Shown here in pieces: positions 1-58,648 of a stretch of DNA of 64,000 bases. The DNA is from Candidatus Acidiferrum sp. Its GTDB lineage: Bacteria; Methylomirabilota; Methylomirabilia; Rokubacteriales; CSP1-6. The position numbers and the translations under genes were made by a program. Where the stretch lies: NCBI GenBank assembly GCA_035317605.1, contig DATHGT010000133.1:5452-69451 (forward strand), given 5' to 3'. Position 1 is the stretch's first letter. Every line of letters starts with the position of its first letter. The notes under the pieces are model-generated. The model was given only the letters and a program-made list of their open reading frames with translations. It was not told the DNA's origin and ran no database searches.

Positions 1-435
1 GAAGCGTCCGTTGAGGAGTTCGGCGACGATCGCCACGTGGCCGACGTTGGGGAGCGAGGCCACCACGTAGCCGTCGGGCGCCAGCAACGGCCGCAGGGCC
101 GCGAGCGCTCGGCCGGGATCGCGCAGGTGTTCGAGCACGTCGGCGCAGACGATGACGTCGAACCGCTCGGCGCCCAGCGCCGCCGCGAAATCGAGCGCGT
201 CGATGTCGGCCACGATCACCCGGCCGCAGGCCGCCCGCGCCCGCTCCGCCGCCTCGGGATCGCACTCGATGCCCACGACCGTGCAGCCGAAGCGCTCGAC
301 CAGAACCTGTGACATGTATCCGCTGGCGCACCCCAGCTCGAGGACGCGCTTGCCCGCGCCGACCAGATGGAGCACGCGACGGTGCGCGTTGTCGGCGTCG
401 AGATCGATGCGGTGTTCGTACTTGAGCGGCGTCAT
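1..435 (-). CDS. class I SAM-dependent methyltransferase (start inside window, 3' end runs off the window start)
   Basis: Not in the ORF track because it has no in-window stop. Minus-strand translation from ATG 435..433 reads MTPLKYEHRIDLDADNAHRRVLHLVGAGKRVLELGCASGYMSQVLVERFGCTVVGIECDPEAAERA...DVIVCADVLEHLRDPGRALAALRPLLAPDGYVVASLPNV. It shows a Gly-rich SAM motif I (VLELGCASG) and the acidic/hydrophobic downstream motifs of Methyltransf_11/23-type enzymes. The ATG lies 2 nt after the TGA of the upstream gene. Confidence 0.6.
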   Translation of the reverse strand, partial: MTPLKYEHRIDLDADNAHRRVLHLVGAGKRVLELGCASGYMSQVLVERFGCTVVGIECDPEAAERARAACGRVIVADIDALDFAAALGAERFDVIVCADVLEHLRDPGRALAALRPLLAPDGYVVASLPNVGHVAIVAELLNGRF

Positions 436-437
436 GC

Positions 438-1253
438 TCAGCCGCGAGCACCCTCCATCGTGCACACGAACACGCCCCGTCCCTGGCGCTCGAAGCCTTC
501 GGCGGTCTTCGTACCGGGGGGCGGCGCCCACACGATGCCCTGGAACGTCACCTCGGCGAAGCCGGCGGCACGGACCATCCGCTCGACACAGGCCGGCCCG
601 TAGATCCACCAATTGGTGGTATCTCCGCAGTACGGGCCCTCGATGAACCAGGCGTACTCCGAGGCCGCGGGGTCGGTAAGCACCTCGGTCTCGAGGTACA
701 TGGTCCGCCGGGTGATCTTCGCCATCTTGGCGAGCATGTCGAGCGGGTTCTGCAGGTGATAGAGGAGTCCGGTGTTGAGCACGACGTCGAAGGGTGGCAG
801 GTCGGTGAGGGCGGCGTGTCCGTCCTGCAATCGAAACTCGACGTCGACGGCCAGGATCTCCCGAATCAACTGCGCCTGGCGGAAGTAGTGCGGCAACGTC
901 TCCAGGCCGAGCACCGATCGGGCCCCGCGCAGCGCGGCCACGAACGAGTAGAACCCGGCGTTGCAACCCACGTCGAGCACGGTCTGGCCCGTGAAGTCCC
1001 GCGGGAACCCGTGCTGGTCGAGCACGGCGAGGGCCCCATGGCACGGGTGGATGCCCGGCGTCTCCAGGCGCTGGCCGGCCGCGTCCTCGATGGTCAGACG
1101 ATGATAGTAGTCGACGCCGCGGCACTCCTCGATGCGCTGCGCGTACCGCCGAAACTCGTCGGGCGAGAGCGCACGGCCGAGCAGGAAACGGTCGGGCGCG
1201 AGGCTCACCGCCCTACTCGCCACCGCGGGCACGGCGACGGCGTCCGACCTCAT
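438..1253 (-). CDS. SAM-dependent methyltransferase, CmoB/DUF1698-like fold (paralog A)
   Basis: 271-aa ORF with motif TVLDVGCNAGFYSF and an NWWIYGP block. About 65% identical in protein to the plus-strand ORF 3466..4284. Its stop overlaps the wzt start region. Confidence 0.7.
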   Translation of the reverse strand: MRSDAVAVPAVASRAVSLAPDRFLLGRALSPDEFRRYAQRIEECRGVDYYHRLTIEDAAGQRLETPGIHPCHGALAVLDQHGFPRDFTGQTVLDVGCNAGFYSFVAALRGARSVLGLETLPHYFRQAQLIREILAVDVEFRLQDGHAALTDLPPFDVVLNTGLLYHLQNPLDMLAKMAKITRRTMYLETEVLTDPAASEYAWFIEGPYCGDTTNWWIYGPACVERMVRAAGFAEVTFQGIVWAPPPGTKTAEGFERQGRGVFVCTMEGARG

Positions 1254-2536
1254 GTGTGCAGGGTAATTTGCACGGGCAGCCAGACCTTGGTGTGGATCAT
1301 CCGGCCGTCGGTGGGAGGCAGGACTTCGAACACCAGGGCGTTGTCCACCCAGTCGAAGAAGGTCGCGGAGTAACGGTTGTACGCCAGTGCCGTTGTCACG
1401 CTGTACGTCCCGGGCGCGAGCGGAAGCCGATGTCGGTAATCTACCACAATCGTCTCACCGGCCCGGCGTGACGGGATGGGGGCGTGGTCCTCGTACGTGT
1501 TCGTCCCGATGATGTTGGTGCCGGTTTTGTCACGGACCAGGTAGCCCAGGATGCACTCGGCAACGTCCTGGTAGAACTCGACGTGGACCCGCAGGACGAT
1601 CTCCGCGTCGAAATCGGCCGCGGCCAGCGGCCGCAGGTTTCCGTTCAGCAGCTCGACGTTCCGGATCCGTGCGGCCCCCGTCCCATGGCGAAACAACCCG
1701 GCCCGCTGGTCGAAGGTTGCATCCGGACGAAAGACACTCGCGGTGGGGGCGAGGGCGGGCGCGGCCAGCGGCGCCGTCGCCGGCCCCGGGGACCGGGTCT
1801 CCAGGCTCGCGATATGGGCGTGGTAGAGGTTGGCGACGTCGGCTGGGTCGCCGAAGGCACGGACCTCGCCAGCGTGCATGAAGAGCACTTCCGAGCACAG
1901 CGCCTGCACCGTGCCGATGTCGTGGCTCACGAAGACGATGGTCTTGCCCTGCTCCTGCAGCTCCTTGATGCGACGGATGCAGCGGTGCTGGAAGATCGCG
2001 TCGCCGACGGCGAGGGCCTCGTCGACCAGCAGCACGGCGGGGTCGACGTGAATGGCGGCGGCGAAGGCCAGGCGAACGAACATGCCGCTCGAGTACGTTT
2101 TCACGGGCTGGTCGAAGTAGTGACCGATCTCGGCGAAGGCCTCGATGGCCGGCACCCGCGCCCGCGTCTCCTCGGAGCGGAACCCGAGGATCGTGCCCTG
2201 CATCATGACGTTCTCCCGACCGGTGAACTCGGGGTTGAAGCCCGCCCCCAGCTCGAGCAGCGAAGCCACCCGGCCCTGCACGGCGACCCGGCCGTGGGTC
2301 GGCTGCACGATGCCGGCGACGACTTGCAGCAGCGTGCTCTTGCCGGAGCCGTTCATGCCGATGATGCCCAGCGTGGACCCGCCCCGGATCCGAAAATTGA
2401 CGTTGTGCAGGGCCCAGAAGTCCCGGTGATAGCGACGACGTCCGCGCCAGAGGGCCTCGTAGAGACGATGCCGCGGATGCGCGTAGATCCGGTAGATCTT
2501 GGACACGGCCTCGACGTCGACCGCGAAGGCGGACAT
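1250..2536 (-). CDS. wzt: polysaccharide/O-antigen ABC transporter ATP-binding protein Wzt with C-terminal carbohydrate-binding (Wzt_C-like) domain
   Basis: In the 1250..3364 track ORF the real start is ATG 2536..2534 (MSAFAVDVEAVSKIYR...), in a TGATG overlap with the wzm stop. It has Walker A GMNGSGKST, signature YSSGM and Walker B LLVDEA. After the NBD there is a roughly 170-aa beta-rich C-terminal extension, as in Wzt proteins that recognise a capped glycan terminus. The 276 upstream codons of the track ORF are Arg/Gly-rich read-through. Confidence 0.85.
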   Translation of the reverse strand: MSAFAVDVEAVSKIYRIYAHPRHRLYEALWRGRRRYHRDFWALHNVNFRIRGGSTLGIIGMNGSGKSTLLQVVAGIVQPTHGRVAVQGRVASLLELGAGFNPEFTGRENVMMQGTILGFRSEETRARVPAIEAFAEIGHYFDQPVKTYSSGMFVRLAFAAAIHVDPAVLLVDEALAVGDAIFQHRCIRRIKELQEQGKTIVFVSHDIGTVQALCSEVLFMHAGEVRAFGDPADVANLYHAHIASLETRSPGPATAPLAAPALAPTASVFRPDATFDQRAGLFRHGTGAARIRNVELLNGNLRPLAAADFDAEIVLRVHVEFYQDVAECILGYLVRDKTGTNIIGTNTYEDHAPIPSRRAGETIVVDYRHRLPLAPGTYSVTTALAYNRYSATFFDWVDNALVFEVLPPTDGRMIHTKVWLPVQITLHT

Positions 2537-3300
2537 CAGAGCACGTCGACGAAGGCGTGCTTCGAACGACCGAAGACCCAGTGGCCCCCCACGAAGCTGG
2601 CCACGGCCACCGCGGCGAGGACGAGCAGCTGCGGACCCAGCGGGAATCGCCCTTCCAGGATCACATCGCGATAGGCCTGGACGACGTAGTACATCGGGTT
2701 CAGGGCGAGCACCCACGCGTAACGGGCCGGCATCAAGTCCGCGGGGTAGAAGATCGGGGTCAGGAACATCCAGAGCGTCATGGCCAGCCCCAGCACCTGT
2801 CCCACGTCGCGCAGGAAGACGTTCAGGCTGGCCAACACCCAGCCGACACCCATGGTGAACAGGAACTGCAGCACCATCACCAGGGGCAACAGAGCCAGGC
2901 TCCACCCGACGCCCCGCGAGAACAGTCCCACCCCCACGAGCATGATCGCGAGCCCCACCAGCTCCATCAGGAGCGCCGAGATCACCACGTACGCGGGCAG
3001 GATCTCCGAGGGAAAGACCACCTTCTTGATCAGTGGCGCCTGCTCCACGATGACCGAAGCGGAGCGGGTGATCCCCTCCGCGAAGGCCAGCCAGGGCAGC
3101 ATGCCGCAAAAGAGGTACAGGGCGAAGCCACCGGTCGTCCCGCCGCCGAACCGGATCTTGAGCACGTACGCGAAGACAAAGGTGTAGAGGAGCAGGAGCG
3201 CGAGCGGCTGGATGATCGCCCACGACAGGCCCATGACCGAGGTGACGTACCGTCCACGGATGTCTCGCCGCACGAACGCCTCGATCGTGGCGCGGTGCAA
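2536..3300 (-). CDS. wzm: ABC-2 type polysaccharide exporter permease Wzm
   Basis: 254 aa with 6 predicted TM segments. The N-terminus RDIRGRYVTSVMGLSWAIIQPL is typical of ABC-2 permeases. It lies immediately upstream of wzt and is translationally coupled to it. Confidence 0.85.
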   Translation of the reverse strand: MHRATIEAFVRRDIRGRYVTSVMGLSWAIIQPLALLLLYTFVFAYVLKIRFGGGTTGGFALYLFCGMLPWLAFAEGITRSASVIVEQAPLIKKVVFPSEILPAYVVISALLMELVGLAIMLVGVGLFSRGVGWSLALLPLVMVLQFLFTMGVGWVLASLNVFLRDVGQVLGLAMTLWMFLTPIFYPADLMPARYAWVLALNPMYYVVQAYRDVILEGRFPLGPQLLVLAAVAVASFVGGHWVFGRSKHAFVDVL

Positions 3301-3465
3301 GACGAGAATTCGAAACGGGGCGATCAGGGCGCCGGCGAACGTCGCGATGGCCGCCCTCCGACACTGCTCACGCCTGGATCATACATGACGCTACGCGGCC
3401 CACGAACGAATCGTGCGCGCGCCGTCCCGGAACCGGCCCCGAGTGCGGTATAGTGACCGCGACAT
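3301..3465. promoter_or_regulatory. divergent intergenic region between wzm (-) and methyltransferase B (+); candidate promoters
   Basis: 165 bp non-coding. A TATAGT hexamer sits about 13 nt upstream of 3466. An inverted repeat CACGA-N5-TCGTG lies near 3400. Confidence 0.3.
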
Positions 3466-4284
3466 GTGCGTCAACCGCGGCCGCTCGACGCCGCTTGCTC
3501 GCGTACCGGCCGCCCCTCGACGATGACGGTGACGCTGACGCCCGACGCCATGGTGCTCGACCGGCGGCTCACCGCGGACGACTACGCGCGTTACCGCAGG
3601 CAGATCGACGAGCGGAAATCCTGGGGGTACTACCAGCGGCTGGTCATCGCCGACGCGGGCGGCCAGCGCCTGGAGACCCCGGGCAGCCACGCGTGTCTGG
3701 GCTCCCTCGCCCTGCTGGATCGTCACGGGTTCCCGAAGGACCTCGCGGGTCAGACCGTGCTCGACATCGGCTGTAACGCCGGCTTCTACTCCTTCGTGGC
3801 CAAGCTGCGCGGAGCGAAGTCCGTCCTCGGTCTCGACTCGCAGCCCCACTACGTCGAGCAGGCGCTGCTGATGAGGGAGATCCTCGGTCTCGACGTGGAA
3901 TTCCGCGTGAGCGACGGCCACGATCTCGACGCGAACGCCGGGACGTTCGACGTGGTGATCAACACCGGCGTCATCTATCACCTGCAGAATCCCATGGACT
4001 TCCTGGTCCGCGTGGCCCAGGTCACCCGGCACCTCATGTATCTCGAGAGCGAAACCCTGCTCGACCCCAAGATGTCCGAGTACGCGTGGTTCATCGAGAA
4101 GGAATACGGCCAGGATGCCTCGAACTGGTGGATCTACGGCCCGCGCTGCGTGGAACGGATGGCGCGGGCCGCCGGGTTTCGGCAGGCCGTGTTCCAGGGC
4201 TTCGTGTGGACGCCGCCACCCGGCATGAAGACGCCGGAGGGATTCGCGCGCCAAGGACGCGGCGCCTTCCTCTGCCAGAAGTGA
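3466..4284 (+). CDS. SAM-dependent methyltransferase, CmoB/DUF1698-like fold (paralog B)
   Basis: The protein aligns along its full length with paralog A (TVLDIGCNAGFYSF, NWWIYGP, FQGFVWTPPPG). The alternative internal start MTVTLTPD at 3523 matches paralog A's N-terminus better. The TGA at 4282..4284 overlaps the GTG of the next gene. Confidence 0.7.
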   Translation: MRQPRPLDAACSRTGRPSTMTVTLTPDAMVLDRRLTADDYARYRRQIDERKSWGYYQRLVIADAGGQRLETPGSHACLGSLALLDRHGFPKDLAGQTVLDIGCNAGFYSFVAKLRGAKSVLGLDSQPHYVEQALLMREILGLDVEFRVSDGHDLDANAGTFDVVINTGVIYHLQNPMDFLVRVAQVTRHLMYLESETLLDPKMSEYAWFIEKEYGQDASNWWIYGPRCVERMARAAGFRQAVFQGFVWTPPPGMKTPEGFARQGRGAFLCQK

Positions 4285-6236
4285 GCGTGGAGTCCGCGTC
4301 CGCTCGCGCGGACGACCCGTCGTCGTTCTCCCGCGACCCCGTCACCCTCGCCGTCGGCCTCGCCGCCTTCGGTGTCCTGGCCGGCGCGCTCGGCCTCGCC
4401 GGCCTCTCGCTCCGACCGGTCGAGGCCGTCATGGTCGCGGTGCTCATCGCCTTCTTCGTGGTCAGCGTGCTGCTCTCGCCGGCCAACGGACTCGTGCTCC
4501 TCTATCTCGTGCCCCCGCTCTTCAACGGAGAGGACGGGCGTCCGTACTTCTGGCTGCTCGAGGTGCTCGTCTACCTGACCGTGGTGGTGGGCATCGTCAT
4601 CCGTCTGCGGCACCGGCAACGGCTCGTCGTCCCTCACGGGGTTCTGCTCGCGATGCTCTTCGCCTCGACCGTGGTTTCGTTTCCCCTCAACCTCAGGGAG
4701 GTGTGGCTCCAGCTCCAGGTTTCGCCCTGGAGCGAGGTGCTGCAAGGCGTCCGCCGGGCCGATCTCTGGGACAACCTCTTCTACGTGCGCACCGTCCTCA
4801 ACGTCGCCAGTGGCATCGGGCTGTTCGTGCTGGTCGTGAACGAGCGGTGGCCCCGCGAGCGGATCGCGCGACTGGCCGCGTCCATCGGCCTCGTCTACCT
4901 CGCCACGACCGCCCTCGGGCTGTGGTGTCACTGGCGGCCGGCGTCCCCCGCGGGCGCGTTCGTCACGCTCTGGCTCGGGGGGCCCGTGTTGGAGGGCTTT
5001 CAGAGCGTCGGTTTCAACATGTCGTATTTCGCGCAATACGCGCTCACCTATCTTCCGCTCATGGCCCTGCCCCTGGCGCTGACGGACGTGGCACCTCGCT
5101 GGGGGGCCGCCGTCGCCCTGCTGAGCTTGATCGTCAGCGGCTACACGATTCCCGCGGCCCACCAGAGGACGGCCTACCTCTTGTTCGTGATGGAGGTGCT
5201 GCTGTTGGTCGCGGCCGCCGTGAACTGGCGGCGGGGCCGAGGGGGACGGGCCGTCCTGGTCGTGGGGATGGGGGCCCTCGTCTTCACCGTCGTCGGGCTC
5301 GTCGTCTTCACCCCACTTGGTCACGGCATCGTCGTGCACGTCAAGCAGTTGTGGTGGAACGGCGACCCCTATCGGGTCAAGGCCCTGTCCGTCACGTGGC
5401 GCATGTTCCGCGACGAGCCACTGCTCGGCATCGGCAGCGGTCGATTCGCGGGCGTCTTCTCCCAGTACGACCAGGAGCCCAGGATGCAATGGGGCTCGTT
5501 GTCAGCTCACAACATCTACGCGCAGTTCCTCGCCGAGCAGGGCGGGCTCGGCTTGGTGAGCTTCCTCCTGCTGGTCGGGGCCGTCGTGATCCCGGCGGTG
5601 CGCAGCGTCCGCCGAGGTGGCCAGGGGCAGACGGCTCTGGTCTTCTTGCTGATATCGATGGCGGGGTGGCTGGCGTATGGGTGCCTTCAGTACACGTTCC
5701 TCATGCGATCGATGCAGGGGTATTTCTGGATCACGCTGGGGCTCCTGCTCATCTTGTCCGAGCCCTGGCGTGGTCGGCCGATGTCGAAGCGGTGGCTCGC
5801 CGCGATCGTGGTGGCGGTTCTGGTGCTGGGGTCGCTGCGCGTCGACGCCGCGCTCCGCCGTCCCGTTCCCGTCGGCTACGCCTGGGGGCTGTATCCCGGC
5901 GAGCCGGGCCAGACCCTCTGGACGCGCGGGGGCGCCGTGTTCAATTTTCCCGCGAATGGGACCCTGCTGACCCTCGCCTTCAGTTTCCCGATGCCGCAGG
6001 TGATCCACCGCCACCCGCAGCGCGCCACCGTGATCGTCGACGGCCGGCCGTTTCGTCAGATCGTCTTCGACTCGCCGTGGACCTGGGAGGTGGTCGACAT
6101 TCCCATCGACAAGCCGCGCGGCGCCCCGGTCCTCGTCCAGGTGAGGGTGGCGCGGACCGTCGTGCCCGCGGCGCTCGGGATCAACACCGACACGCGCCCG
6201 CTCGGCGTCCTCATGAAGCCTCCGTCCTGGCGCTGA
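4281..6236 (+). CDS. O-antigen ligase/polymerase-family (Wzy_C domain) polytopic membrane protein with about 130-aa C-terminal periplasmic extension
   Basis: The track ORF 4086..6236 overlaps the upstream gene. A GTG at 4281 (GTGA overlap) or 4287 precedes the first TM segment (PVTLAVGLAAFGVLAGALGLAGL). There are about 12 TM segments and the Wzy_C/O-antigen-ligase signature LLGIGSGRFAGVFSQYD...SAHNIYAQFLAEQGGLGL. The C-terminal soluble domain ends ...VQVRVARTVVPAALGINTDTRPLGV. Confidence 0.65.
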   Translation: MSVESASARADDPSSFSRDPVTLAVGLAAFGVLAGALGLAGLSLRPVEAVMVAVLIAFFVVSVLLSPANGLVLLYLVPPLFNGEDGRPYFWLLEVLVYLTVVVGIVIRLRHRQRLVVPHGVLLAMLFASTVVSFPLNLREVWLQLQVSPWSEVLQGVRRADLWDNLFYVRTVLNVASGIGLFVLVVNERWPRERIARLAASIGLVYLATTALGLWCHWRPASPAGAFVTLWLGGPVLEGFQSVGFNMSYFAQYALTYLPLMALPLALTDVAPRWGAAVALLSLIVSGYTIPAAHQRTAYLLFVMEVLLLVAAAVNWRRGRGGRAVLVVGMGALVFTVVGLVVFTPLGHGIVVHVKQLWWNGDPYRVKALSVTWRMFRDEPLLGIGSGRFAGVFSQYDQEPRMQWGSLSAHNIYAQFLAEQGGLGLVSFLLLVGAVVIPAVRSVRRGGQGQTALVFLLISMAGWLAYGCLQYTFLMRSMQGYFWITLGLLLILSEPWRGRPMSKRWLAAIVVAVLVLGSLRVDAALRRPVPVGYAWGLYPGEPGQTLWTRGGAVFNFPANGTLLTLAFSFPMPQVIHRHPQRATVIVDGRPFRQIVFDSPWTWEVVDIPIDKPRGAPVLVQVRVARTVVPAALGINTDTRPLGVLMKPPSWR

Positions 6237-6267: not shown

Positions 6268-7587
6268 CTAGCCGGGCAGATCGACGATTCGCCAGTCGCC
6301 CCAGGCGAGATCACGGATGGCGAACTGCCAGATCACCACGCGTGTCCCATCGAGCCGCCGCCAGCCGCGCGCCAGCTCGTTGGCGAGGACGAGACGGGAC
6401 AGATACGCGCCTCCGCCGGGTAGGCAGATCTTGTCGAGCGGACGAGCGAGCTCGACGCTGAGCGTCTCCGGCAGGCCGGCGGCGAGCGGGCGGCCGATCT
6501 GGTCTGTCCCGTACATCATGCAGAAGCTGTCGCCGAGCAGGAGCACGTCCGCCGAAGGTGTCGGCTGCCACAGGGCGCCCGCGTGATCGACGACCTGCCG
6601 TACGCGAAGCGTCAGCGGCGGGTACAGCATCTGGCCGAGTGGAAGATAGAGCAGGTTGACCAGGTCGAACTGGACGAGATGGGCCTCGGCCTCCTTCGTC
6701 CGATAGGCCTGCGGGCGCGGGGGCAGGCCGGCGGCCCGGCCGATGGTCCGCGCCAGGCCGGCCGCCACCACGCCCATCGTCTCCGGAAGCCAGTGCGTGT
6801 CGGCCCGCAAGTACGCGGGCGACGTTCGGGAGCGAGCATAGATGTCGGCCGACGGATCGAACACCTCGACGCGTTCGCGCGCGAGCGCTTCCCTGAACGC
6901 GGCGTACGACGGATTCTGCGGCACCGAGTCCCAGCGCGGGACGGATCGGAATCGCTCCGGATGGATCATGTCCTTGTCGGGCGTGGGCAGGAGGATCAGG
7001 TCGATGCCGCGCGCCGCGAGCTGGCGCCGAAAGCGGATGATCGCGGGGCGGGGATCGGGTTGCTGGAGGTCGTCGGTGCTCTTGGCGGCGGCCCTCCGCC
7101 GGGCCAGCACCTGGGGATCGAGAAACCCGGGGCCCATGACGTACTCGACCCCCATGCGGTCGAAGAGCCAGCGATGCTCGCCGACGTAGATGGTGTCGTT
7201 CCCCACGTCGAGGCGGCTGGTGATGATCGTCTGCGCCGTGGTCCGGACGACGTGGCCGACGACCGAGCCGCGTTCGAGCGCCGTCTCGAAGCGACGGAGT
7301 CGGGCCTCGGTCGGCACCCAGGCCAGCAACCGCCGGACGCGCCGACGGAGGTCCCGTCCGAAGGGAAGCACCTCCGCTTCGAGCATTTCCGGCGACGCCG
7401 CCTCGACCGCCGCCGCCGACGGCACGCGGAAACGCCCCAGCTCCGAGCAGGCCTGCACGAGGGGCACGATGAGGATGGTGAGGAGGAGCGCGCCCACCAG
7501 CATCCAGCGCACACCCCGCGAAAACGAGGTGTGCCCCAGCTCGGCCAAGGCTTGCTCTTCGCGACTGCGGGGGGCGTCACTCGTCAT
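6268..7587 (-). CDS. AlgX/AlgJ-like (SGNH/DHHW-type) periplasmic polysaccharide O-acetyltransferase partner protein
   Basis: 439 aa with an N-terminal TM anchor (WMLVGALLLTILIVPLV), the motif YLRADTHWLPETMG and a GDS-like block LLLGDSF. It lies directly downstream of the MBOAT gene in the same orientation, the classic two-component O-acetylation arrangement. Confidence 0.6.
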   Translation of the reverse strand: MTSDAPRSREEQALAELGHTSFSRGVRWMLVGALLLTILIVPLVQACSELGRFRVPSAAAVEAASPEMLEAEVLPFGRDLRRRVRRLLAWVPTEARLRRFETALERGSVVGHVVRTTAQTIITSRLDVGNDTIYVGEHRWLFDRMGVEYVMGPGFLDPQVLARRRAAAKSTDDLQQPDPRPAIIRFRRQLAARGIDLILLPTPDKDMIHPERFRSVPRWDSVPQNPSYAAFREALARERVEVFDPSADIYARSRTSPAYLRADTHWLPETMGVVAAGLARTIGRAAGLPPRPQAYRTKEAEAHLVQFDLVNLLYLPLGQMLYPPLTLRVRQVVDHAGALWQPTPSADVLLLGDSFCMMYGTDQIGRPLAAGLPETLSVELARPLDKICLPGGGAYLSRLVLANELARGWRRLDGTRVVIWQFAIRDLAWGDWRIVDLPG

Positions 7588-9154: not shown

Positions 9155-10399
9155 TCAACGATGACCGAGGAGCCTCGTCGAGACGTGGCGCTTGAGCGCC
9201 TGGTACGCGGGAAGGTGTCGGACCCGGTCCACGGCGGGCTTGATCGGCCCGGTATTCCGCAGCCGCTGGAGCAGACGCCAGAGGCGGAAGGCCTGGCGTC
9301 GGGCGTGGGCGCGCAGGGCCTTCTTCAACGTGCCGGCGTCGTCACGCTCGTCGACGGGCAGGGCGAACAGCTCGATGGCCGGTGAGACGAGGGGAACCTC
9401 GATCGTCTCGGGAATGCCGCGGTTGCGCGCGCACACCAGGATGCGCTCGATGCTCTCGCCCCCCGGTCCCCGGCCCGGGCTCACCGACGCAACCCCCGCG
9501 ACTTCGAATCCGCACGCGGTGAACAGCCGCTCCAGCTCGGCCCGAGCATAGACACGGACGAACGCCCCGCCCCGGTCCTTGGCCTCGAACCACGCCTCGG
9601 AGACGAGCATCTCGGGGTCGAGCTGGACGAAGTCGACGCAGGCCCAGGCGCCGAGGGCGAGCTGGCGTTGGACGTTCTGGAGCGTCCGCACGAAGCTCGG
9701 GTAGAGATGCTCGAAGGTCGCCGAGCATACGAACAGGTCGCACTCCGCCTCCACCTGGTCGGTCATGGCGTCGCCCCGAACGAAGCGGGTGTGCTCGTCG
9801 CCGAACCTTTCGGAGAGCTTCTGGACCCGGTCGCCGGAGAGGTCCAGCCCCGTATAGCTCCGATAGGTATGTCCAGCGGCGCGCAGCGAGGCCAGCAGAC
9901 GGCCGTACCCGGGACCGACCTCCAGGATGCGCCCTTGGCGGAGGGTGCCCAGGTCGACGTGGGCGCCGAGGGCGCCGATGAAGGTGTCGCCGGTCATGAC
10001 CGAGCCCCAGGTGAGCGAGGCCTCGGATTCCGCGCCTTGCCACCGCTCCTTGGAGCGGGTCATCGGGTCCTCGGCCGCGAATCGCGCGGCCGAGTGCGTG
10101 TCGTAGTAGAGCGTGGAGGTGCCGTTCGGCAGCAACGCTCGGGTGTCGGCGAAGCGCACCTCGAAGCGATTCTCGCCGTACTCCAGAGACTCGAAGGGGT
10201 TGAACCAGAAGGCCCCGCGCGCGTCGACCACACCGGCGTTCAGGAGGTCGGCGCGGACGCCGCGGGCGGGGACGACGGCGACCAGGCGATCGTTCCGCAC
10301 GATCTCCACGCCCACGGTCCGCCCGGGGTGTTCGCGGTCGGCCGCCCATCCGTGGATCGAAAACATCGTGAACCGGTCGACGTGACCGTCCAGCCTCAT
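9155..10399 (-). CDS. class I SAM-dependent methyltransferase with about 130-aa N-terminal beta-rich domain of unknown function
   Basis: 414 aa. Motif I is ILEVGPGYGRLLASL, followed by the D/E-containing motifs. The N-terminal domain (FSIHGWAADRE...FWFNPF) has no recognisable catalytic motif. Confidence 0.65.
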   Translation of the reverse strand: MRLDGHVDRFTMFSIHGWAADREHPGRTVGVEIVRNDRLVAVVPARGVRADLLNAGVVDARGAFWFNPFESLEYGENRFEVRFADTRALLPNGTSTLYYDTHSAARFAAEDPMTRSKERWQGAESEASLTWGSVMTGDTFIGALGAHVDLGTLRQGRILEVGPGYGRLLASLRAAGHTYRSYTGLDLSGDRVQKLSERFGDEHTRFVRGDAMTDQVEAECDLFVCSATFEHLYPSFVRTLQNVQRQLALGAWACVDFVQLDPEMLVSEAWFEAKDRGGAFVRVYARAELERLFTACGFEVAGVASVSPGRGPGGESIERILVCARNRGIPETIEVPLVSPAIELFALPVDERDDAGTLKKALRAHARRQAFRLWRLLQRLRNTGPIKPAVDRVRHLPAYQALKRHVSTRLLGHR

Positions 10400-13889: not shown

Positions 13890-16800
13890 GTGAGCCACGA
13901 CAGTCCTTCCGACGTCTGCATCGTCATCCCGGTGTTCAACAAGCGGGCCTTCACGCTCCAATGCCTCGACCGGATCTGGCGGAACACGTCGACCATCGTC
14001 CCCTACGAAGTCGTCGTGGTGGACAACGGCTCGAGTGACGGCACCCGGGAGCACTTCGAGGGCGGCGTCGTCTCGCCGCGACTGCGGTACCTCCGGAACG
14101 ACACCAACCTCGGCTTCGCCAAGGGCAACAACCTCGGAGCGCGACTGGCCCGGGGGAAGTATCTGCTGTTCCTCAACAACGACACGCTGGTCCAGCCCAA
14201 ATGGCTCGAAGACATGGTCGGCCTGGCCAGCGGCGATCCCGCGATCGGCATGGTCGGCATCAAGCAGCTGTTCCCCTACACCAGCACCATCCATCACACC
14301 GGCATCGTCTTCACCGCGGGCGCCCGTCCCCTGCACCTCTATCCGCACGCGGACGCGCGGTGGCCTCACGTCAACAAGCAGCGCGAGTATCAGGCCGTCA
14401 ACGGCGCGTGCTTCTTGATCCGGCGCGAACTGTTCGAGGCGTGCGGCGGCTTCGACGAGGGCTACGTCAACGGATACGAGGACATGGACCTCTGCCTGGC
14501 CGTGCGGCAGCGCGGCTTCAAGATCGTCTGCTGCACGTCGTCCTTCATCTATCACTACGGCCAGATCTCCGAGGGGCGGACCAGCGCCGACGCCCGCAAC
14601 GCGGCGCGCTTCGTCGCCAAGTGGGGAGCCCACGTCCGGGCCGACGACGGCGACTACGCTCACGCCGACCTGGAGGACGTTCAGCGGGTCGAGGCGGCCC
14701 GCCGCCTCGTGCCCGCGCCCCGGCCGGAGGGCGGGGCCGCGTTCCACTTCGTCGACGACCTCTCGCGGGGCAGCGCGCTGTCCTGGGCGGTGGCCGATCT
14801 CGTCCTCGCCCTCAAGCGCCTCGGGGCGCCGGTCCACATCGCGAACACGCCCCTGACGAAGACCCTCGACGAGTCGACCCGCCGGGAGCTGCAGCCCCTG
14901 ATGCGCGGCGATCGTGACCCGGACGGAGTGCACATCAAGTGGTCGCATTACTGGCCGGAGCATCTCGCCCTCGATCTGACCGGCCGGATCAACCTGGAGC
15001 TGTTCGTCATCAACTACACGTTCGCCCGGCCTGGCGCCGACCCGTGGGACTACTGGCTCCAGTGCCTGGCGCAGAATCACTATCACAAGCTGCCGCTGAC
15101 TCGGTTCTGCCAGGACGTGCTCCTCGAGGTCGGGGTGCCGGCGGCGGAGAGCCACCTCTTGCACCTCGGCTATTCCCGCGAAGTCCACGACGTGGGGCCG
15201 CCCCCGCGCCGCCCGGGGGGATTCCGCTTTCTCACCGTCACCAACTCGCACGACCTCACGCGCTACGGGACCCGACTGCTCCTGGAGGCCTACTGGGACG
15301 CCTTCGCGCGCGGGGACGACACGGTCCTGGTCGTCAAGGACTACGGGGCCACGTCGGCGGACACCACGCTCCGCGACCTCATGCGCCGGGCGAACGGCCG
15401 GGCCCGCGTCGAGTACGTCGATGCGTTCACGAGCAAGCGGGACCTGATCAGCCTCTATCGTTCCTGCGACGCCTTCGTCTCGGCCCACCGCAGCGAAGGC
15501 TTCGGCATGAAGATCCTCGACGCGCTCGCCTGTGGTCTGCCCGTGATCACCCCGCGCTTCGGCGGCCCCGCGGACTTTTGCACGCCCGAGACCAGCTTCG
15601 AGGTGGCGTTCACCCTGGAGCCGATGACCGACTGCCTCGACACCCGCTCGCTCCGGATCACCAATCAACCGCTCTGGGGTGCGCCCGACCGCAACGACCT
15701 CGTGAGGCAGCTGCGGTTCGTGGCCGGCCACCCCGCGGCCGCCGCCGCGGTGGGCGAGGCCGGACGTCGCTCGGTCGTGGATCGCTTCACCTGGGACGCC
15801 TCCGCGCGGCGGCTGGTCGCCATCGTGGACGAGATCCGCGAGGGGCAGACGCGGCGCACCACGCGACGGGCCGACCGGGCCCCGGCCCCCGCGGCCGAGG
15901 CGTCGCCCTACTGGCTCGGCTGCCGGTTGAGCGTGGTCATTCCCACCTATAACCGCAAGGACACGCTGCTCCAGTGTCTGGCCGCGCTGGAGCGGCAGTC
16001 GATCCTGCCCTCGGAGTTCGAGGTCGTGGTCGTGGACGACGGCTCGACGGACGGCACCGAGGCGGCGCTGGCCGCGCGTCAGTTCACGTTTCCCCTCGAA
16101 TACCACCGGCAGTCGAATCAGGGGCCGGGCGCCGCCCGCAACCTCGGCGTCACCCTCGCCCGCGGCGAGCTGGTGCTCTTCATCGGAGACGACATCATCG
16201 CCCACGAGCGGCTGCTGGAGCACCATCTCCTGACCCACGCGCAACATCCCGAGGCGAGCGCGTCCGTGCTCGGACACATCGACTGGCCGCCGTGGCTGAC
16301 GCCCACGCCGGTGATGGACTACGTGTGCGGGGAGGGCGGTCTTCAGTTCGCGTACCAGTTCATCCCGGATCTTCCGTCGCTCGACTACCGGTTTTTGTAC
16401 ACGAGCAACATCTCTCTGAAGCGCCGGTTTCTCCTGGAGGCGTTCGAGGCGGGCGTCCGCTTCGACCCGTGCTTCCGGTACGCGGCGTTCGAGGATTCCG
16501 AGCTGGCCCTCCGGCTCGAGTCGCGGGGACTCACCATCCACTACTCCAGCGACGCGCTCGCCTACCACGATCACTGGATGGACCTCGAAAGCTTCGCGCG
16601 CCGCGAATACAGCGCCGGGCAGATGGCGGTGGTCTTCTACCGCAAGCATCCGAAGATGGACGAGGTCCTGACCGTGCGCTGGATCGGAGACTGGGTCGAG
16701 GCCGTCGAGAAGCTCCGCGCGCAGCCGGCCTTGCTGGACAAGGTCAAGACGCTGGACGCGCACACCGACCAGTTCCTCGTCTCGCTGGAGCGGTCCCTGG

Positions 16801-17303
16801 AGGAGCTCCTGACCCTCGAAGCATCGCTCGCGTCGACCATCGGCCGCGAACGACCGCGGACCGTGGTCCGCTCGGCGCTGCACAGCGTCCTCGCCGTGAT
16901 TTTCGACGTGCATCGCACGCGGGGCAAGGTCCAGGAGTGGTACGCGATGGTCGAGGATCGCGACAAGGTCGAGAGCGCGAAGGCCCTGCTCGGCTGCCTG
17001 CGCAAGCTCGAATTCCTCGGCACCGACGGAACCGCGCTGGGACGCCTGGTTCCGGGTCTTTCCTGGGGACGTCAGGAGGTCCGGGACCTGAAGGCCCAGG
17101 CCGCCGCGCTGCAGAGCGAGCTGGGCACGCCCGTCCCCTCCGGGGCTCGCGCCCTCGTGCGCCGCGTGCTCCTGCGCGGCGGCGTCTTCAGGGCGCTACG
17201 GAACGCCGACCGCCGCCTCCAGGCCGCCCTGCACCGGCGCCAGCGGCTCGGCTGGCTCGCGGCCTATCACCGGATCCGCGGCCGGCTCAAGCGCCTCTTG
17301 TAG
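13890..17303 (+). CDS. 1137-aa three-domain glycosyltransferase (GT2 - GT4/GT-B - GT2) with C-terminal helical region
   Basis: GTG start at 13890. Domain 1 is CIVIPVFNKR...VVVVDNGSSDGT...DTLV (GT2, with DXD-like DNDT). The middle domain ...VEYVDAFTSKRDLISLYRSCDAFVSAHRSEGFGMKILDALACGLPVITP carries the GT4 EX7E-type C-terminal motif. Domain 3 is LSVVIPTYNRKDTL...VVVVDDGSTDGT...FIGDDII (GT2). The last roughly 250 aa are helical/coiled-coil-like. Confidence 0.8.
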   Translation: MSHDSPSDVCIVIPVFNKRAFTLQCLDRIWRNTSTIVPYEVVVVDNGSSDGTREHFEGGVVSPRLRYLRNDTNLGFAKGNNLGARLARGKYLLFLNNDTLVQPKWLEDMVGLASGDPAIGMVGIKQLFPYTSTIHHTGIVFTAGARPLHLYPHADARWPHVNKQREYQAVNGACFLIRRELFEACGGFDEGYVNGYEDMDLCLAVRQRGFKIVCCTSSFIYHYGQISEGRTSADARNAARFVAKWGAHVRADDGDYAHADLEDVQRVEAARRLVPAPRPEGGAAFHFVDDLSRGSALSWAVADLVLALKRLGAPVHIANTPLTKTLDESTRRELQPLMRGDRDPDGVHIKWSHYWPEHLALDLTGRINLELFVINYTFARPGADPWDYWLQCLAQNHYHKLPLTRFCQDVLLEVGVPAAESHLLHLGYSREVHDVGPPPRRPGGFRFLTVTNSHDLTRYGTRLLLEAYWDAFARGDDTVLVVKDYGATSADTTLRDLMRRANGRARVEYVDAFTSKRDLISLYRSCDAFVSAHRSEGFGMKILDALACGLPVITPRFGGPADFCTPETSFEVAFTLEPMTDCLDTRSLRITNQPLWGAPDRNDLVRQLRFVAGHPAAAAAVGEAGRRSVVDRFTWDASARRLVAIVDEIREGQTRRTTRRADRAPAPAAEASPYWLGCRLSVVIPTYNRKDTLLQCLAALERQSILPSEFEVVVVDDGSTDGTEAALAARQFTFPLEYHRQSNQGPGAARNLGVTLARGELVLFIGDDIIAHERLLEHHLLTHAQHPEASASVLGHIDWPPWLTPTPVMDYVCGEGGLQFAYQFIPDLPSLDYRFLYTSNISLKRRFLLEAFEAGVRFDPCFRYAAFEDSELALRLESRGLTIHYSSDALAYHDHWMDLESFARREYSAGQMAVVFYRKHPKMDEVLTVRWIGDWVEAVEKLRAQPALLDKVKTLDAHTDQFLVSLERSLEELLTLEASLASTIGRERPRTVVRSALHSVLAVIFDVHRTRGKVQEWYAMVEDRDKVESAKALLGCLRKLEFLGTDGTALGRLVPGLSWGRQEVRDLKAQAAALQSELGTPVPSGARALVRRVLLRGGVFRALRNADRRLQAALHRRQRLGWLAAYHRIRGRLKRLL

Positions 17304-19396: not shown

Positions 19397-19828
19397 AGCG
19401 AGTCTCCCATTGCGCGAAGACCGCCATGGCCCCCTTCGTTTCGGTAACCCGGCTATCAGACCTCATGTCTGACCCGTGGCTTTGCGTCCCCGCCTCACGA
19501 CGGGTTTGCCTTTATCGGGGAAGGGGTCTTCGTTCTGGCAGAAGCCTAGAGCAACACTCGTACCGGACCGGATGCGAGTGCGACAACACGCCTTAAATAG
19601 TTGATTTCTTACGTACGAAGTACATTTCAGCAATCACCGTGGAGGGCGTGCTGCCATTTTCTGTCCAGCATCCGCCGGGCGGGGTGACACGATCACGATC
19701 GACTGCGCGCCAGGTAAACCCCTGAACCGGATTCCCAAACCGTCGCGTCGTGGGTTAGAGTACCCGCGACGATGTTCTCTGCCGTATTCACCCCTAGCCC
19801 AACCGTGAAAGGTTCGAGCGTCCGTTAG
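19397..19828. promoter_or_regulatory. 430-bp non-coding divergent leader/promoter region with AT-rich core
   Basis: No ORF of 60 aa or more. An AT-rich stretch acgccttaaatagttgatttcttacgtacgaagtacatttcagcaatca (about 19590..19640) stands out in a 70% GC background. It contains a TTGATT hexamer and short palindromes TACGTA/CGTACG. A stem CGTCGCG-N17-CGCGACG lies at 19740..19770. Confidence 0.3.
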
Positions 19829-21616
19829 GTGGAAGTCACCGATGGCCCCATGAGAGTCGCGGCGCTCGCCGGGCCATATGTGACCGCGCTGCTCGTCGCC
19901 GTCGTGTTGACCCTCGTGTGCGAGCGCGTGGCCCGTCGCTTCCGGTTGATCGCGCACCCGCGCGAGGATCGATGGCACCGTGAGAGCGTCCCGCTGCTCG
20001 GCGGCCTGGCCATCATGCTGACGGTCGCCGTGGTGGGCGCCGGATGGGGGGCCCGACTTGGTCGGTTTGCGCCGCTGCTGGTGCTGTCCTTCGCCATGGG
20101 CGTCGTGGGACTCGTCGACGACGTCAGGACGCTGCGCCCCCAGACCAAGCTGGCCGCACAGATCGTCGGCGCGGCCGTCCTGATCCAGTTCGGAGCCCTC
20201 CTCCCGCTCACCCAGTTCGCGATCGTCAATCTGCTCCTCACCCTGTTCTGGATGGTGGCGATCACCAATGCCTTCAACCTCCTCGACAACATGGACGGCC
20301 TGGCGGCCGGCGTGGCCGTCCTCACCGCGGTGTTCCGGCTGTGGCTCTTTCTCATCGACGGCGACGGCGACGGCGCCTGGATGATGGCGGCGCTCGTCGG
20401 CGCGGCGGGCGGGTTCCTCATCCGCAACTATCCGCCGGCCAAGATCTTCATGGGCGACGCGGGAAGCCTCTTCCTGGGCTTCTTTCTGGGCGGCGTCTCG
20501 CTGGTCAGTAGCTACGCCCAAACTCGCGGGGTCATCGCCGTGCTCGTCTTCCCGATCCTGCTCGTCCTCGTGCCCATTCTCGATACCTCATTCGTCACCG
20601 TGACGCGCCTGCTCAGCGGGCGATCGGTCGCCCAGGGCGGCCGGGATCATACCTCCCACCGGCTCATGGCCCTGGGGATCAGCGAGCGGAAGGCGCTCAG
20701 CCTGCTTCTGGGCGTTTCGACGGTCTCGGGGGTCCTGGCGATCCTGTCGTATCAGCAGGGGTTCCGATACTCGATCATCCTGCTCGCCTTGCTCATCATC
20801 TGGCTCGCCCTTCTGGGCGTACATCTCAGTCGCGCGCACGTCGTCACGGCTCAGGCCGGCGGGGAGGCGGCGGCCACCTTCCGTTTCGTGAACGACTTCC
20901 CGTACAAGCGTCACGTCGTTACCCTGGGCATCGATGCGATGTTGATCGTGGTGGCCTACTATGCGTCGTACCTGCTCCGCTTCGAAGGGACGTTCGAAGC
21001 CGAACGAGCGAACTTCATGCGCAGCGTCGGGCCGATCCTCGGCCTGCAGATCCTGGCTCTTGCCGTCTTCGGCAGCTATCGCGGAATCTGGCGTTACACG
21101 AGCCTTTCCGACCTTGTCCGTCTGTGCCGCGCGGCGACGGCCGGCGTGGCCGCCAGTGTCCTGTACCTGGTGTTCACCACGCGGTTCGAGACGTTTTCGA
21201 GAGCGGTGTTCGTGCTCGACTGGGCCCTCTTGATCCTCCTTCTCGCCGGAAGCCGGGTGGCGTTCCGTCTCCTCGGTGACTGGCTGCGGCCGCGATCGAG
21301 AACGTCCCGGCGGGCATTGATCTACGGCGCCGGCGACGGTGGCGCCCTCACCCTGCGTGAGCTGCTGAACAATGCCGGTCTCGCGCGGCGCCCGGTGGGC
21401 TTCCTCGACGACGATCGGCACAAGCGAGGCCGGCGGATCTACGGGCTCCCCATCCTGGGTGGGCTCGACCTCGCCGAGGAGATCTTCACGGCCCAGCAGG
21501 TCGAAGAGGTGATCGTCGCCTCACAGAAGATCCCGCCCGAACGGCTCGAGCAGCTGAGCGCCCTGTGCACGGCCCGCGGCGTCCTGGTGACGCGGGCGTC
21601 GCTGTGGATCCAGTGA
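19829..21616 (+). CDS. WecA/MraY-family (Glycos_transf_4) polyprenyl-phosphate HexNAc-1-phosphate transferase fused to C-terminal membrane segment plus CoA_binding-type Rossmann domain
   Basis: 595 aa. Residues 1-330 carry the 11-TM MraY/WecA core with NAFNLLDNMDGLAAG and FMGDAGSLFLGF motifs. Four more TM helices follow, then ALIYGAGDGGALTLRELL...PVGFLDDDRHKRGRRIYGLPILGGLD...VEEVIVA. This resembles the nucleotide/CoA-binding domain found at the N-terminus of WbaP/PglF/WbpM-type proteins. Confidence 0.75.
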   Translation: MEVTDGPMRVAALAGPYVTALLVAVVLTLVCERVARRFRLIAHPREDRWHRESVPLLGGLAIMLTVAVVGAGWGARLGRFAPLLVLSFAMGVVGLVDDVRTLRPQTKLAAQIVGAAVLIQFGALLPLTQFAIVNLLLTLFWMVAITNAFNLLDNMDGLAAGVAVLTAVFRLWLFLIDGDGDGAWMMAALVGAAGGFLIRNYPPAKIFMGDAGSLFLGFFLGGVSLVSSYAQTRGVIAVLVFPILLVLVPILDTSFVTVTRLLSGRSVAQGGRDHTSHRLMALGISERKALSLLLGVSTVSGVLAILSYQQGFRYSIILLALLIIWLALLGVHLSRAHVVTAQAGGEAAATFRFVNDFPYKRHVVTLGIDAMLIVVAYYASYLLRFEGTFEAERANFMRSVGPILGLQILALAVFGSYRGIWRYTSLSDLVRLCRAATAGVAASVLYLVFTTRFETFSRAVFVLDWALLILLLAGSRVAFRLLGDWLRPRSRTSRRALIYGAGDGGALTLRELLNNAGLARRPVGFLDDDRHKRGRRIYGLPILGGLDLAEEIFTAQQVEEVIVASQKIPPERLEQLSALCTARGVLVTRASLWIQ

Positions 21617-56949: not shown

Positions 56950-56986
56950 CGGATCATTCTTTCCGCGCGCCCGTCGGAGTCCGCTT

Positions 56987-57007
56987 CGTGTTCAAAATGT
57001 GAACAGG
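56987..57007. promoter_or_regulatory. palindromic candidate operator CGTGTTCA-aaatg-TGAACA upstream of the pseB array
   Basis: Perfect 6-bp arms TGTTCA/TGAACA with a 5-nt spacer at 56989..57005, about 40 bp upstream of the pseB start. The same core recurs at 58631..58646. Confidence 0.35.
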
Positions 57008-57158
57008 ATTCTATCGCCCCGGCCGCCGCGCCGTCAAGCGCCCCATCGGCGAATGGGCCGGTCGCTTGACAGGTCGCGAGAAGAACCCGAAGATCCGGCC
57101 TCGTGCGGAACGGGCAGATTCGAGAATCACCGCCGACGCGGACGCTCCCGCCACCGTC

Positions 57159-57947: not shown

Positions 57948-57997
57948 GTTCGGATCTGCCCTGAGGGGGGCCGGCAGGCCGGCGACCGCGCCGTCAT

Positions 57998-58588: not shown

Positions 58589-58627
58589 GCGCCGGTCCCG
58601 TCGCCGCCCGCTTGGAGCCCGCTCATC

Positions 58628-58648
58628 GCGTGTTCATGTTTTGAACGG
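58628..58648. promoter_or_regulatory. second copy of the palindromic operator GCGTGTTCA-tgttt-TGAACGG, about 45 bp upstream of the regulator gene
   Basis: TGTTCA-N5-TGAAC at 58631..58646. It shares the CGTGTTCA...TGAAC core with the site at 56989..57005. Confidence 0.35.

Follow-up and report, generated by a model that had tools for sequence, protein, structure and literature searches.

A candidate export and termination locus for a methyl-capped glycan, with paralogous CmoB-fold methyltransferases, in an uncultured acidobacterium

A stretch of 64,000 nucleotides from contig DATHGT010000133.1 (positions 5,452 to 69,451 of the forward strand; GC-content ~68%), referred to here as the window, belongs to an uncultured acidobacterium, a member of a poorly studied phylum, whose metagenome-assembled genome (MAG) carries the NCBI name Candidatus Acidoferrum sp. 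The entire window is a glycan biosynthesis island. Its left end, as read from a listing of open reading frames (ORFs) and their translations, comprises five genes: a partial methyltransferase gene (MT0), a CmoB-fold methyltransferase gene (MT1), the ATPase and permease genes of an ATP-binding cassette (ABC) transporter (wzt and wzm), and a second CmoB-fold methyltransferase gene (MT2). On balance we favor the view that these genes encode the export and termination module of an ABC-transporter-dependent, methyl-capped, O-antigen-like surface glycan, with MT0 as the terminator. The strongest evidence is the conservation, in the C-terminal domain of Wzt, of the pocket with which a characterized relative binds a methylated sugar; the assignment of MT0 draws on a predicted coiled-coil stalk and on gene order in related loci.

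In the mechanism that we propose, a WecA-like enzyme and a 1137-aa glycosyltransferase would build the glycan on undecaprenyl phosphate at the cytoplasmic face, and O-methylation of the non-reducing terminal sugar would stop chain growth. MT0 would methylate that sugar once the chain reaches its catalytic head; the Wzt domain, by analogy with characterized systems, would then bind the methylated cap and license export via Wzm/Wzt, and a Wzy_C protein would transfer the exported glycan to an acceptor. More tentatively, and with less than even confidence, we suggest that the coiled-coil MT0 and one or two CmoB-fold methyltransferases make up a three-enzyme termination module that builds a multiply methylated cap.

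Organization of the locus

The genes at issue are as follows.

1..435, minus strand: MT0, partial, first 145 codons (ATG at 435; the remainder lies beyond the left edge of the window)
438..1253, minus strand: MT1, CmoB-fold (DUF1698) methyltransferase, 271 aa (BLASTP, Pfam)
1250..2536, minus strand: Wzt, ABC transporter ATPase with a putative C-terminal carbohydrate-binding extension, 428 aa (Pfam)
1304..1690, minus strand: Wzt_C domain, residues 283-411 of Wzt (Pfam PF14524)
2536..3300, minus strand: Wzm, ABC-2 permease (Pfam ABC2_membrane, 82 bits)
3301..3522, no strand: divergent intergenic region that separates the wzm and MT2-Wzy_C operons (gene layout)
3523..4284, plus strand: MT2, CmoB-fold (DUF1698) methyltransferase, 253 aa (Pfam, AF2 model)
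4281..6236, plus strand: membrane protein with a Wzy_C domain, 651 aa (Pfam Wzy_C, 52.8 bits)

The junction between wzm and wzt is a TGATG overlap, that between wzt and MT1 an ATGA overlap, and the gap from MT1 to MT0 is just 2 nt; on the opposite strand the stop codon of MT2 overlaps the GTG start of the Wzy_C gene (GTGA). These junctions therefore define two divergent operons, wzm-wzt-MT1-MT0 on the minus strand and MT2-Wzy_C on the plus strand, both translationally coupled. The region between them is presumed to hold the promoters of both; because a sigma-70 consensus scan for promoters and terminators across 3200-3600 found nothing, the placing of promoters there is an inference. Two start codons allow a choice. 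The longest ORF of wzm begins at 3300 and the public annotation starts the gene at 3273 (245 aa), while the MT2 ORF could begin at a GTG at 3466; for MT2 the true start is likely the ATG at 3523, which agrees with the public annotation and with the size (253-256 aa) of almost all homologs.

Wzt keeps the pocket residues of a methyl-cap reader

The N-terminal half of Wzt is an ABC ATPase (ABC_tran at residues 43-175, 74 bits in Pfam), with Walker A (GMNGSGKST), signature (YSSGM), Walker B (LLVDEA) and H-loop (SHD) motifs legible in the translation. The best relatives of the full protein in the PDB are Wzt and TagH/TarH proteins, headed by full-length Aquifex aeolicus Wzt (8DKU/7K2T, E 6e-77). 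The first-pass annotation of this DNA had proposed that the tail of Wzt is a carbohydrate-binding extension resembling a methyl-cap reader, and comparison with the Wzt_C hidden Markov model bears this out: the match scores 109 bits against a cutoff of 30.4 (E 2e-31). Searched by itself against the PDB by sequence, the tail has a single match, the carbohydrate-binding domain of A. aeolicus Wzt (6O14/8DKY, E 2e-9). A profile was needed to reach the corresponding domains 5HNO and 2R5O; since it included the Aquifex sequence, its score against Aquifex is by construction. From these matches we infer that the tail is a beta-sandwich carbohydrate-binding domain.

The A. aeolicus domain, itself a beta-sandwich, binds 3-O-methyl-D-mannose and not mannose, and the native O antigen of that organism is capped by 3-O-methyl rhamnose or mannose (PMC9445017). 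Its methyl pocket is formed by Leu300, Thr346, Ala348 and Trp362, with Asn313 touching the ring oxygen and His350 touching O2 (PMC9445017). In an alignment with the window protein, L300, T346, A348, W362 and N313 correspond to L333, T381, A383, W396 and N346, so that five of the six ligand-contacting side chains are kept; the sixth, H350, is Ala. All five pocket and ring residues are likewise kept in the Wzt proteins of three related loci (L170, L171 and L172), and four are kept in that of a further locus (L086), where the equivalent of Leu300 is Tyr. The aligned pocket positions of 5HNO, which binds 3-deoxy-D-manno-octulosonic acid, are Ser, Ser, His and Gly, and the conservation of the pocket is therefore specific rather than generic to the Wzt_C family. 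The retention of all four methyl-pocket residues together with the ring-contacting Asn makes it likely that the exported glycan has an O-methylated terminal sugar.

Two further Wzt-like sequences were encountered among the related loci. Near a 58%-identical methyltransferase homolog in one of them (L001, 3460-4713) lies a Wzt-like protein with a C-terminal extension of ~170 aa, which is too divergent for a tblastn match to the window Wzt_C and is without the Trp/Thr/Ala pocket; the cap that it reads is probably a different one. In L086 the interval from a small methyltransferase-like gene to the MT0 homolog is non-coding except for a stretch of 49 residues (7153-7299), 69% identical to part of the Wzt C-domain, which appears to be left over from a rearrangement or from a second copy of wzt.

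MT0 is the likeliest chain terminator

The first-pass annotation named the two bracketing methyltransferases, or alternatively the adjacent gene at 1..435, as the possible source of the chain-terminating methyl. The adjacent gene does encode a methyltransferase (Pfam Methyltransf_23, 95 bits), and it is this alternative, not either of the bracketing paralogs, that emerges as the best candidate. The full protein is 373 aa long, and the complete gene is L081 4765-5886 (minus strand; identical to P0121). The protein has a class I methyltransferase domain, and its nearest structure is an uncharacterized protein of Bacillus cereus (3CC8; E 2e-34, template modeling (TM) score 0.80).

An AlphaFold2 (AF2) model of full-length MT0 (mean confidence, pLDDT, 87) places the methyltransferase domain at residues 1-224, followed by a single continuous helix of 80 residues (253-332, pLDDT mostly 74-96) and two short helices (334-349 and 355-368). 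In the best heptad register of the long helix, 61% of a and d positions are L, I, V, M or F, against 29% overall. The last 41 residues, which include the two predicted short helices, form a basic tail with 14 K/R against 2 D/E, and as modeled are compatible with membrane binding. In 118 MT0 homologs the part beyond the catalytic domain is between ~60 and 411 aa long (median 165).

A coiled coil with the catalytic domain at its far end and the C-terminus near the membrane is described as the characteristic marker of the terminators in glycan assembly that depends on ABC transporters (PMC11231755). Among MT0, MT1 and MT2 the predicted stalk is found in MT0 alone. Gene order points the same way. 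A gene of the MT0 type stands directly after wzt(Wzt_C), or one gene away from it, in L086, L170, L172, L173, L174 and the P0139 contig, and of all genes it is the one most constantly linked to wzt(Wzt_C) in the loci of this kind that we examined; in two of them (L173 and the P0139 contig) no MT1-type gene intervenes. Because it carries the sole predicted coiled-coil stalk and shows the most constant linkage, MT0 is most likely the chain-terminating methyltransferase.

The likeness of MT0 to WbdD, the terminator of Escherichia coli O8/O9a, is one of architecture only, not of homology. WbdD chains are absent from the PDB matches of MT0 at E <=0.01, and no kinase domain was detected in it.

A resemblance to another protein of the window was also seen. 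The C-terminal ~190 residues of the 1137-aa GT2-GT4-GT2 glycosyltransferase form a helical-looking region with a basic tail, 'GWLAAYHRIRGRLKRLL', which resembles 'GWRVVKRVRRWRARL' of MT0; the two may share a membrane-binding or interaction motif common to polymerase and terminator.

MT1 and MT2 have the CmoB fold but are not CmoB

The description in the first-pass annotation of two roughly 65%-identical, CmoB-like methyltransferases bracketing wzm-wzt in inverted orientation proved accurate: MT1 and MT2 share 62% of residues over 253 aa without gaps (BLASTP, E 4e-125), and both match Pfam Methyltransf_9 (DUF1698/CmoB-like) with 61.1 and 57.2 bits against a cutoff of 23.8, over profile positions 113-264 of 315. 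The closest solved relative of a profile of the family is CmoB (E 8e-17); WbdD is reached at the generic class I level only (E ~1e-7). Structure gives the same result. The AF2 model of MT2 (pLDDT 93.9) is a single compact domain whose top 13 Foldseek matches in the PDB are all CmoB (TM 0.79-0.82, normalized to the query), whereas the non-CmoB methyltransferases listed reach at most 0.68 (ToxA and XrdM 0.55-0.58; the sugar O-methyltransferase EvdMO1 up to 0.68).

MT1 and MT2 nevertheless fall far below the cutoffs of the CmoB equivalog models (TIGR00452 and PRK15068; 65.6 and 70 bits against 275, and 60.5 and 64.8 against 209), and they are ~70 residues shorter than CmoB, at the N-terminus. They thus have the CmoB fold but are not CmoB orthologs. 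Scores against TIGR04290 (115.7 and 127.9 bits) are likewise below its cutoff of 300.

CmoB holds the carboxylate of carboxy-S-adenosylmethionine (carboxy-SAM, Cx-SAM) by means of K91, Y200 and R315, of which K91 is essential; the K91A variant is a SAM-dependent methyltransferase (PMC4482062). Y200 aligns with Y152, present in 30 of 30 family sequences, and R315 with R246, present in 28 of 30. For K91 there is no counterpart in sequence: Lys does not exceed 40% of family members at any position within residues 1-76, and the N-terminal 70 residues of the family did not align to CmoB in hhalign. (The E. coli CmoB query sequence agrees with the HMMER alignment over 119-280, and its K91, K110, Y200 and R315 match PMC4482062.) Five proteins of the 64-kb window, of which four are methyltransferases, were scanned with NCBIfam, and none hit a model of CmoA, the Cx-SAM synthase. 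Ordinary SAM-dependent methyl transfer is the most likely activity of both enzymes. MT1 and MT2 are ancient, functionally diverged paralogs of a CmoB-derived family, and most likely act as sugar O-methyltransferases that add further methyl groups to the cap or to internal residues.

The top database match, with 100% identity, goes by the name 'DUF1698 domain-containing protein' (Candidatus Acidoferrum sp. MAG); other members bear the same name or are mislabeled as a ubiquinone methylase or a tRNA (mo5U34)-methyltransferase. No papers on DUF1698 turned up in literature searches, with or without polysaccharides as a second topic, and a search on Acidobacteria O-antigen methylation found nothing relevant.

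Other branches of the family were seen in passing. Longer CmoB-like variants of 385-410 aa, some with DUF4214, are represented by P0009, P0017, P0035 and P0041. When genome and metagenome contigs were scanned with the methyltransferase alignment, the matches listed were mostly of a wider family, ~40% identical to MT1 and MT2 and without linkage to wzm/wzt. This wider family is sub-threshold for TIGR04290 and shares the motif NWW(I/V)(Y/F)GP; its loci (L010 8003-12665, L042 6897-12720 and L052 9015-11501) include genes for a GT4 glycosyltransferase, a histidine phosphatase, myo-inositol-1-phosphate synthase, nucleotidyltransferases and a PIG-L deacetylase, which points to a part in the metabolism of a small molecule that contains inositol or a sugar.

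The paralogs are old, and inversion of the segment between them is unsupported

In a neighbor-joining tree of 107 family members MT1 and MT2 fall into different subclades. Orthologs of MT1 are 94% (P0046), 79% (P0039), 76% (P0043) and 75% (P0038) identical to it, and those of MT2 84% and 73%; as these values (73-94%) exceed the 62% between MT1 and MT2, the duplication must be old. A recent inverted duplication was accordingly rejected, each paralog being nearer to orthologs in other organisms than to its partner.

The two paralogs also differ in the company they keep. In each of the four distinct relatives checked (P0038, P0042, P0043 and P0044), wzm-wzt(Wzt_C) is followed at once by a gene of the MT1 subclade, and then by one of the MT0 type wherever the sequence continues. 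MT1 is thus the paralog specifically tied to the presumed cap-reading Wzt. MT2-like genes are placed more variably: in L086 and L173 one follows the MT0-type gene downstream of wzm-wzt(Wzt_C), in L088 there is no transporter within 10 kb of it, and the relatives nearer to MT2 on the P0012 contig and in L084 have beside them a Wzt of just 249-261 aa without Wzt_C, which argues against a general cap-for-Wzt role of the MT2 branch. One relative joins the two enzyme types physically. On the P0038 contig (6283-8265) the MT1 ortholog is followed by a 660-aa protein with MT0-type domains and then Methyltransf_9; its first 125 residues are 69% identical to MT0, and the fusion ties MT0-type and CmoB-like enzymes together functionally.

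A further suggestion of the first-pass annotation, that the inverted duplication could permit recombinational inversion of the transporter module, is not supported. The paralogs would on this account be arms for homologous recombination that flip wzm-wzt and so give phase variation, and the geometry (two inverted homologous genes ~2.2 kb apart) is all that speaks for it; we regard it as exceedingly improbable. At the DNA level MT1 and MT2 form an inverted repeat that is 73-77% identical in two blocks and 70% identical over 253 aligned codons (60% at third positions), but the longest exact run common to both is 18 nt; they come from different old subclades, and exchange between them would yield chimeric genes. 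Moreover, gene orientation is the same in three independent assemblies (one from ENA and two Logan runs). A search of the locus for short inverted repeats of high identity came up empty, and site-specific inversion was rejected as well; the genes scanned included no recombinase. Between arms this diverged homologous recombination would be inefficient, and we take the inverted orientation to follow from the arrangement of the operons rather than to act as a switch.

Alternative explanations

The placing of MT0 at the head of the termination step has to be weighed against several considerations and against three other accounts of MT1 and MT2. The case for a methyl cap consists of pocket conservation in a domain that is only 32% identical overall to its Aquifex counterpart, and within that domain the His that contacts O2 of the Aquifex cap sugar is Ala and the trap loop is one residue shorter, so that the capped sugar or the methylated position may differ from those of Aquifex. 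MT0 has no specific sequence similarity to WbdD, and its coiled coil is predicted from a monomer model and a heptad count. The related loci are a small sample on short metagenomic contigs. On one of these, the P0139 contig, wzt(Wzt_C) and MT0 are followed by a methyltransferase of a different family, which means that the CmoB-fold enzymes are not obligatory partners; nor does sequence separate methylation of the cap from methylation of internal residues by MT1 and MT2. All of these weigh against the reading that we prefer.

Could a bracketing enzyme, most plausibly MT1, add the chain-ending methyl, leaving MT0 a second methylation or a scaffolding role? We consider this unlikely but deserving of attention: MT1 overlaps the wzt stop codon, its orthologs follow wzt(Wzt_C) directly in the four relatives described above, and in Pseudomonas aeruginosa the methyltransferases of the common polysaccharide antigen (CPA) are small, stand-alone proteins without interaction domains, whose double mutant lacks CPA (PMC3560663). 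Neither MT1 nor MT2, however, has a coiled coil, and the MT2 model is one compact domain; in L173 and on the P0139 contig it is MT0 that directly follows wzt(Wzt_C), and the relatives nearer to MT2 adjoin a Wzt of 249-261 aa that lacks Wzt_C. That MT0 is the terminator remains the account that we prefer.

The two remaining accounts concern the chemistry and the substrate of MT1 and MT2, and we hold both to be very improbable. If the pair were CmoB-like carboxy-SAM enzymes, they would place an O-carboxymethyl ether, not a methyl group, on the glycan or its cap. CmoB is indeed their closest fold by a clear margin (TM 0.79-0.82 against <=0.68), and two of the three carboxylate-binding residues (Y200 and R315) align with nearly invariant residues; yet K91, without which CmoB cannot use Cx-SAM (PMC4482062), has no equivalent, the five proteins scanned with NCBIfam include no CmoA-like synthase, and the Wzt pocket matches a methyl binder. 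We give similarly little credence to the broader notion that the paralogs represent an uncharacterized family of polysaccharide-modifying alkyltransferases which retain part of the carboxy-SAM site; were the carboxymethyl account true, carboxy-SAM would for the first time be seen at work in glycan biosynthesis. It is no easier to believe that MT1 and MT2 modify tRNA or a small metabolite and lie near wzm-wzt by coincidence. Their only characterized relatives are the tRNA-modifying CmoB enzymes, and the wider, ~40%-identical family sits with inositol-phosphate synthase, phosphatase and nucleotidyltransferase genes and not with transporters. Against this stand scores far under the CmoB equivalog cutoffs (65-70 against 275 and 60-65 against 209 bits), the N-terminal shortening of ~70 residues, translational coupling to wzt and to the Wzy_C gene, and the finding that every close-homolog locus examined is a glycan gene cluster.

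Comparison with known systems

The best solved match to both halves of Wzt is WzmWzt of A. aeolicus (6O14, 8DKY, 7K2T and 8DKU), which has the same domain order; the differences in the carbohydrate-binding domain (~32% identity) are the substitution of Ala for the O2-contacting His and the trap loop, one residue shorter here. The word 'methyltransferase' has 0 occurrences in the Aquifex paper (PMC9445017).

The logic of the module is that of E. coli O8/O9a (Klebsiella pneumoniae O5/O3), where a methyl or methyl-phosphate cap added by WbdD ends growth and is read by the Wzt C-domain. WbdD consists of a catalytic domain at the N-terminus, a coiled coil that serves as a ruler and a C-terminus that binds the membrane (PMC3482155; PMC11231755), and the predicted layout of MT0 is alike; the two are not homologous, however, no kinase domain was found in MT0, and its stalk is short (~80 residues). 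The E. coli O9a Wzt domain (2R5O) is itself only distantly related to the window Wzt_C (E 5e-4 with a profile), and relative to the O8/O9a WbdD system the window locus adds two CmoB-fold enzymes. The CPA locus of P. aeruginosa, an ABC-transporter-dependent glycan locus, likewise has several small stand-alone methyltransferases (PMC3560663). PA5457 and PA5459 are partly redundant, and their joint loss abolishes the CPA polymer (PMC3560663). Both are WbdD-like in sequence according to PMC3560663, the comparison being by description, and in this they are unlike MT1 and MT2.

For MT1 and MT2 the closest family in both fold and sequence is CmoB, the tRNA U34 carboxymethyltransferase (4QNU/4QNV, 4P7C and 7CT8). 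Common motifs reach as far as the C-terminal tail and the counterparts of Y200 and R315 are kept, but scores are below cutoff, the N-terminus is shorter, a K91 counterpart is lacking, and the genes lie in a glycan and not a tRNA-modification context.

The compact operon also recalls the S-layer glycan locus of Geobacillus stearothermophilus NRS 2004/3a, in which wzm, wzt and a capping-methyltransferase gene overlap in one operon (PMC2943079). A 2-O-methyl cap is proposed to be read by Wzt there, after which a Wzy_C-type transferase (WsaB) attaches the glycan (PMC2943079). In Geobacillus, however, the methyltransferase is fused to rhamnosyltransferases in WsaE, the acceptor is an S-layer protein and the cell is Gram-positive.

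Much of the locus is thus familiar: the transporter resembles Aquifex WzmWzt, the terminator has a WbdD-like architecture, and the operon together with Wzy_C recalls that of Geobacillus. The proposed mechanism is standard cap-dependent export, the understanding of which is unchanged, and it will not surprise a specialist. New here are the assignment of a CmoB-fold/DUF1698 subfamily to glycan methylation, a previously undescribed putative terminator family, with a 3CC8-like head on a variable coiled coil, and the host phylum. The first gives this subfamily a testable proposed function, sugar O-methylation in the ABC-transporter-dependent glycan pathways of Acidobacteriota. The locus would also bring export that depends on a cap, with a coiled-coil terminator, to a soil phylum that has received little study. 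An operon of the form wzm-wzt(Wzt_C)-MT-MT(coiled-coil) could also serve as a marker of methyl-capped glycans in metagenomes.

Neighboring genes and other observations

Features to the right of the divergent operons include the following.

6268-7587, minus strand: AlgX-like SGNH protein (Pfam ALGX, 96 bits)
7631-9118, minus strand: MBOAT protein (Pfam MBOAT, 102 bits)
9155..10399, minus strand: MT3, a fourth methyltransferase, 414 aa, methyltransferase domain at residues 154-300
13890..17303, plus strand: GT2-GT4-GT2 multidomain glycosyltransferase, 1137 aa, candidate polymerase (Pfam)
19829..21616, plus strand: WecA/WbpL-like polyprenol-phosphate sugar-1-phosphate transferase, candidate initiating enzyme (Glycos_transf_4 and CoA_binding_3)
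49029-49835 and 57003-57947: two additional methyltransferases
50589-52652: cytidylyltransferase fused to an aldo-keto reductase
54791-56281: DegT-family aminotransferase
55945-56991: PseB-like dehydratase

The 651-aa Wzy_C protein resembles an O-antigen ligase or oligosaccharyltransferase and is presumed to be the transferase for the exported glycan; a homolog adjoins wzm in L086, L173, L174 and the P0139 contig. The AlgX-like and MBOAT proteins look like a pair for O-acylation of the glycan. Genes for a PhyH-family dioxygenase, an S8 peptidase/FG-GAP protein, further glycosyltransferases and AsnB-like amidotransferases also lie to the right of the divergent operons. A 1018-aa protein similar to the 1137-aa glycosyltransferase adjoins the MT2-like gene in L088.

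The region 47133-58633 holds a gene set that resembles one for nonulosonic-acid biosynthesis; besides the last four entries above it includes a class I glutamine amidotransferase and a MarR/HTH regulator. This brings the count of methyltransferases in the window to at least six.

Inside the glycan cluster, in the interval that separates the polymerase-like glycosyltransferase from the WecA-like gene, lies a c-di-GMP-I (GGC variant) riboswitch (19439-19519, minus strand; RF03167, 76.4 bits, E 2e-16). It is situated 43 nt upstream of an ORF of 691 aa (17321-19396, minus strand), whose product has a signal-peptide-like N-terminus, repeated Ig-like segments and FG-GAP/VCBS-like 'DYDGDGKTDLAIYR..GEW' repeats. 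The arrangement suggests that cyclic di-GMP controls a secreted repeat protein encoded alongside the glycan genes.

Large FG-GAP repeat proteins recur beside wzm, wzt and methyltransferase genes, both at this locus and in several relatives (window 11735-13846, plus strand; L086 9496-12270, L088 5891-9839, L173 1-1777 and L081 1693-4584); one of them is fused to an S8 peptidase. These proteins could be acceptors or processors of the glycan, in which case the Wzy_C protein could be a protein O-oligosaccharyltransferase rather than a lipid A-core ligase.

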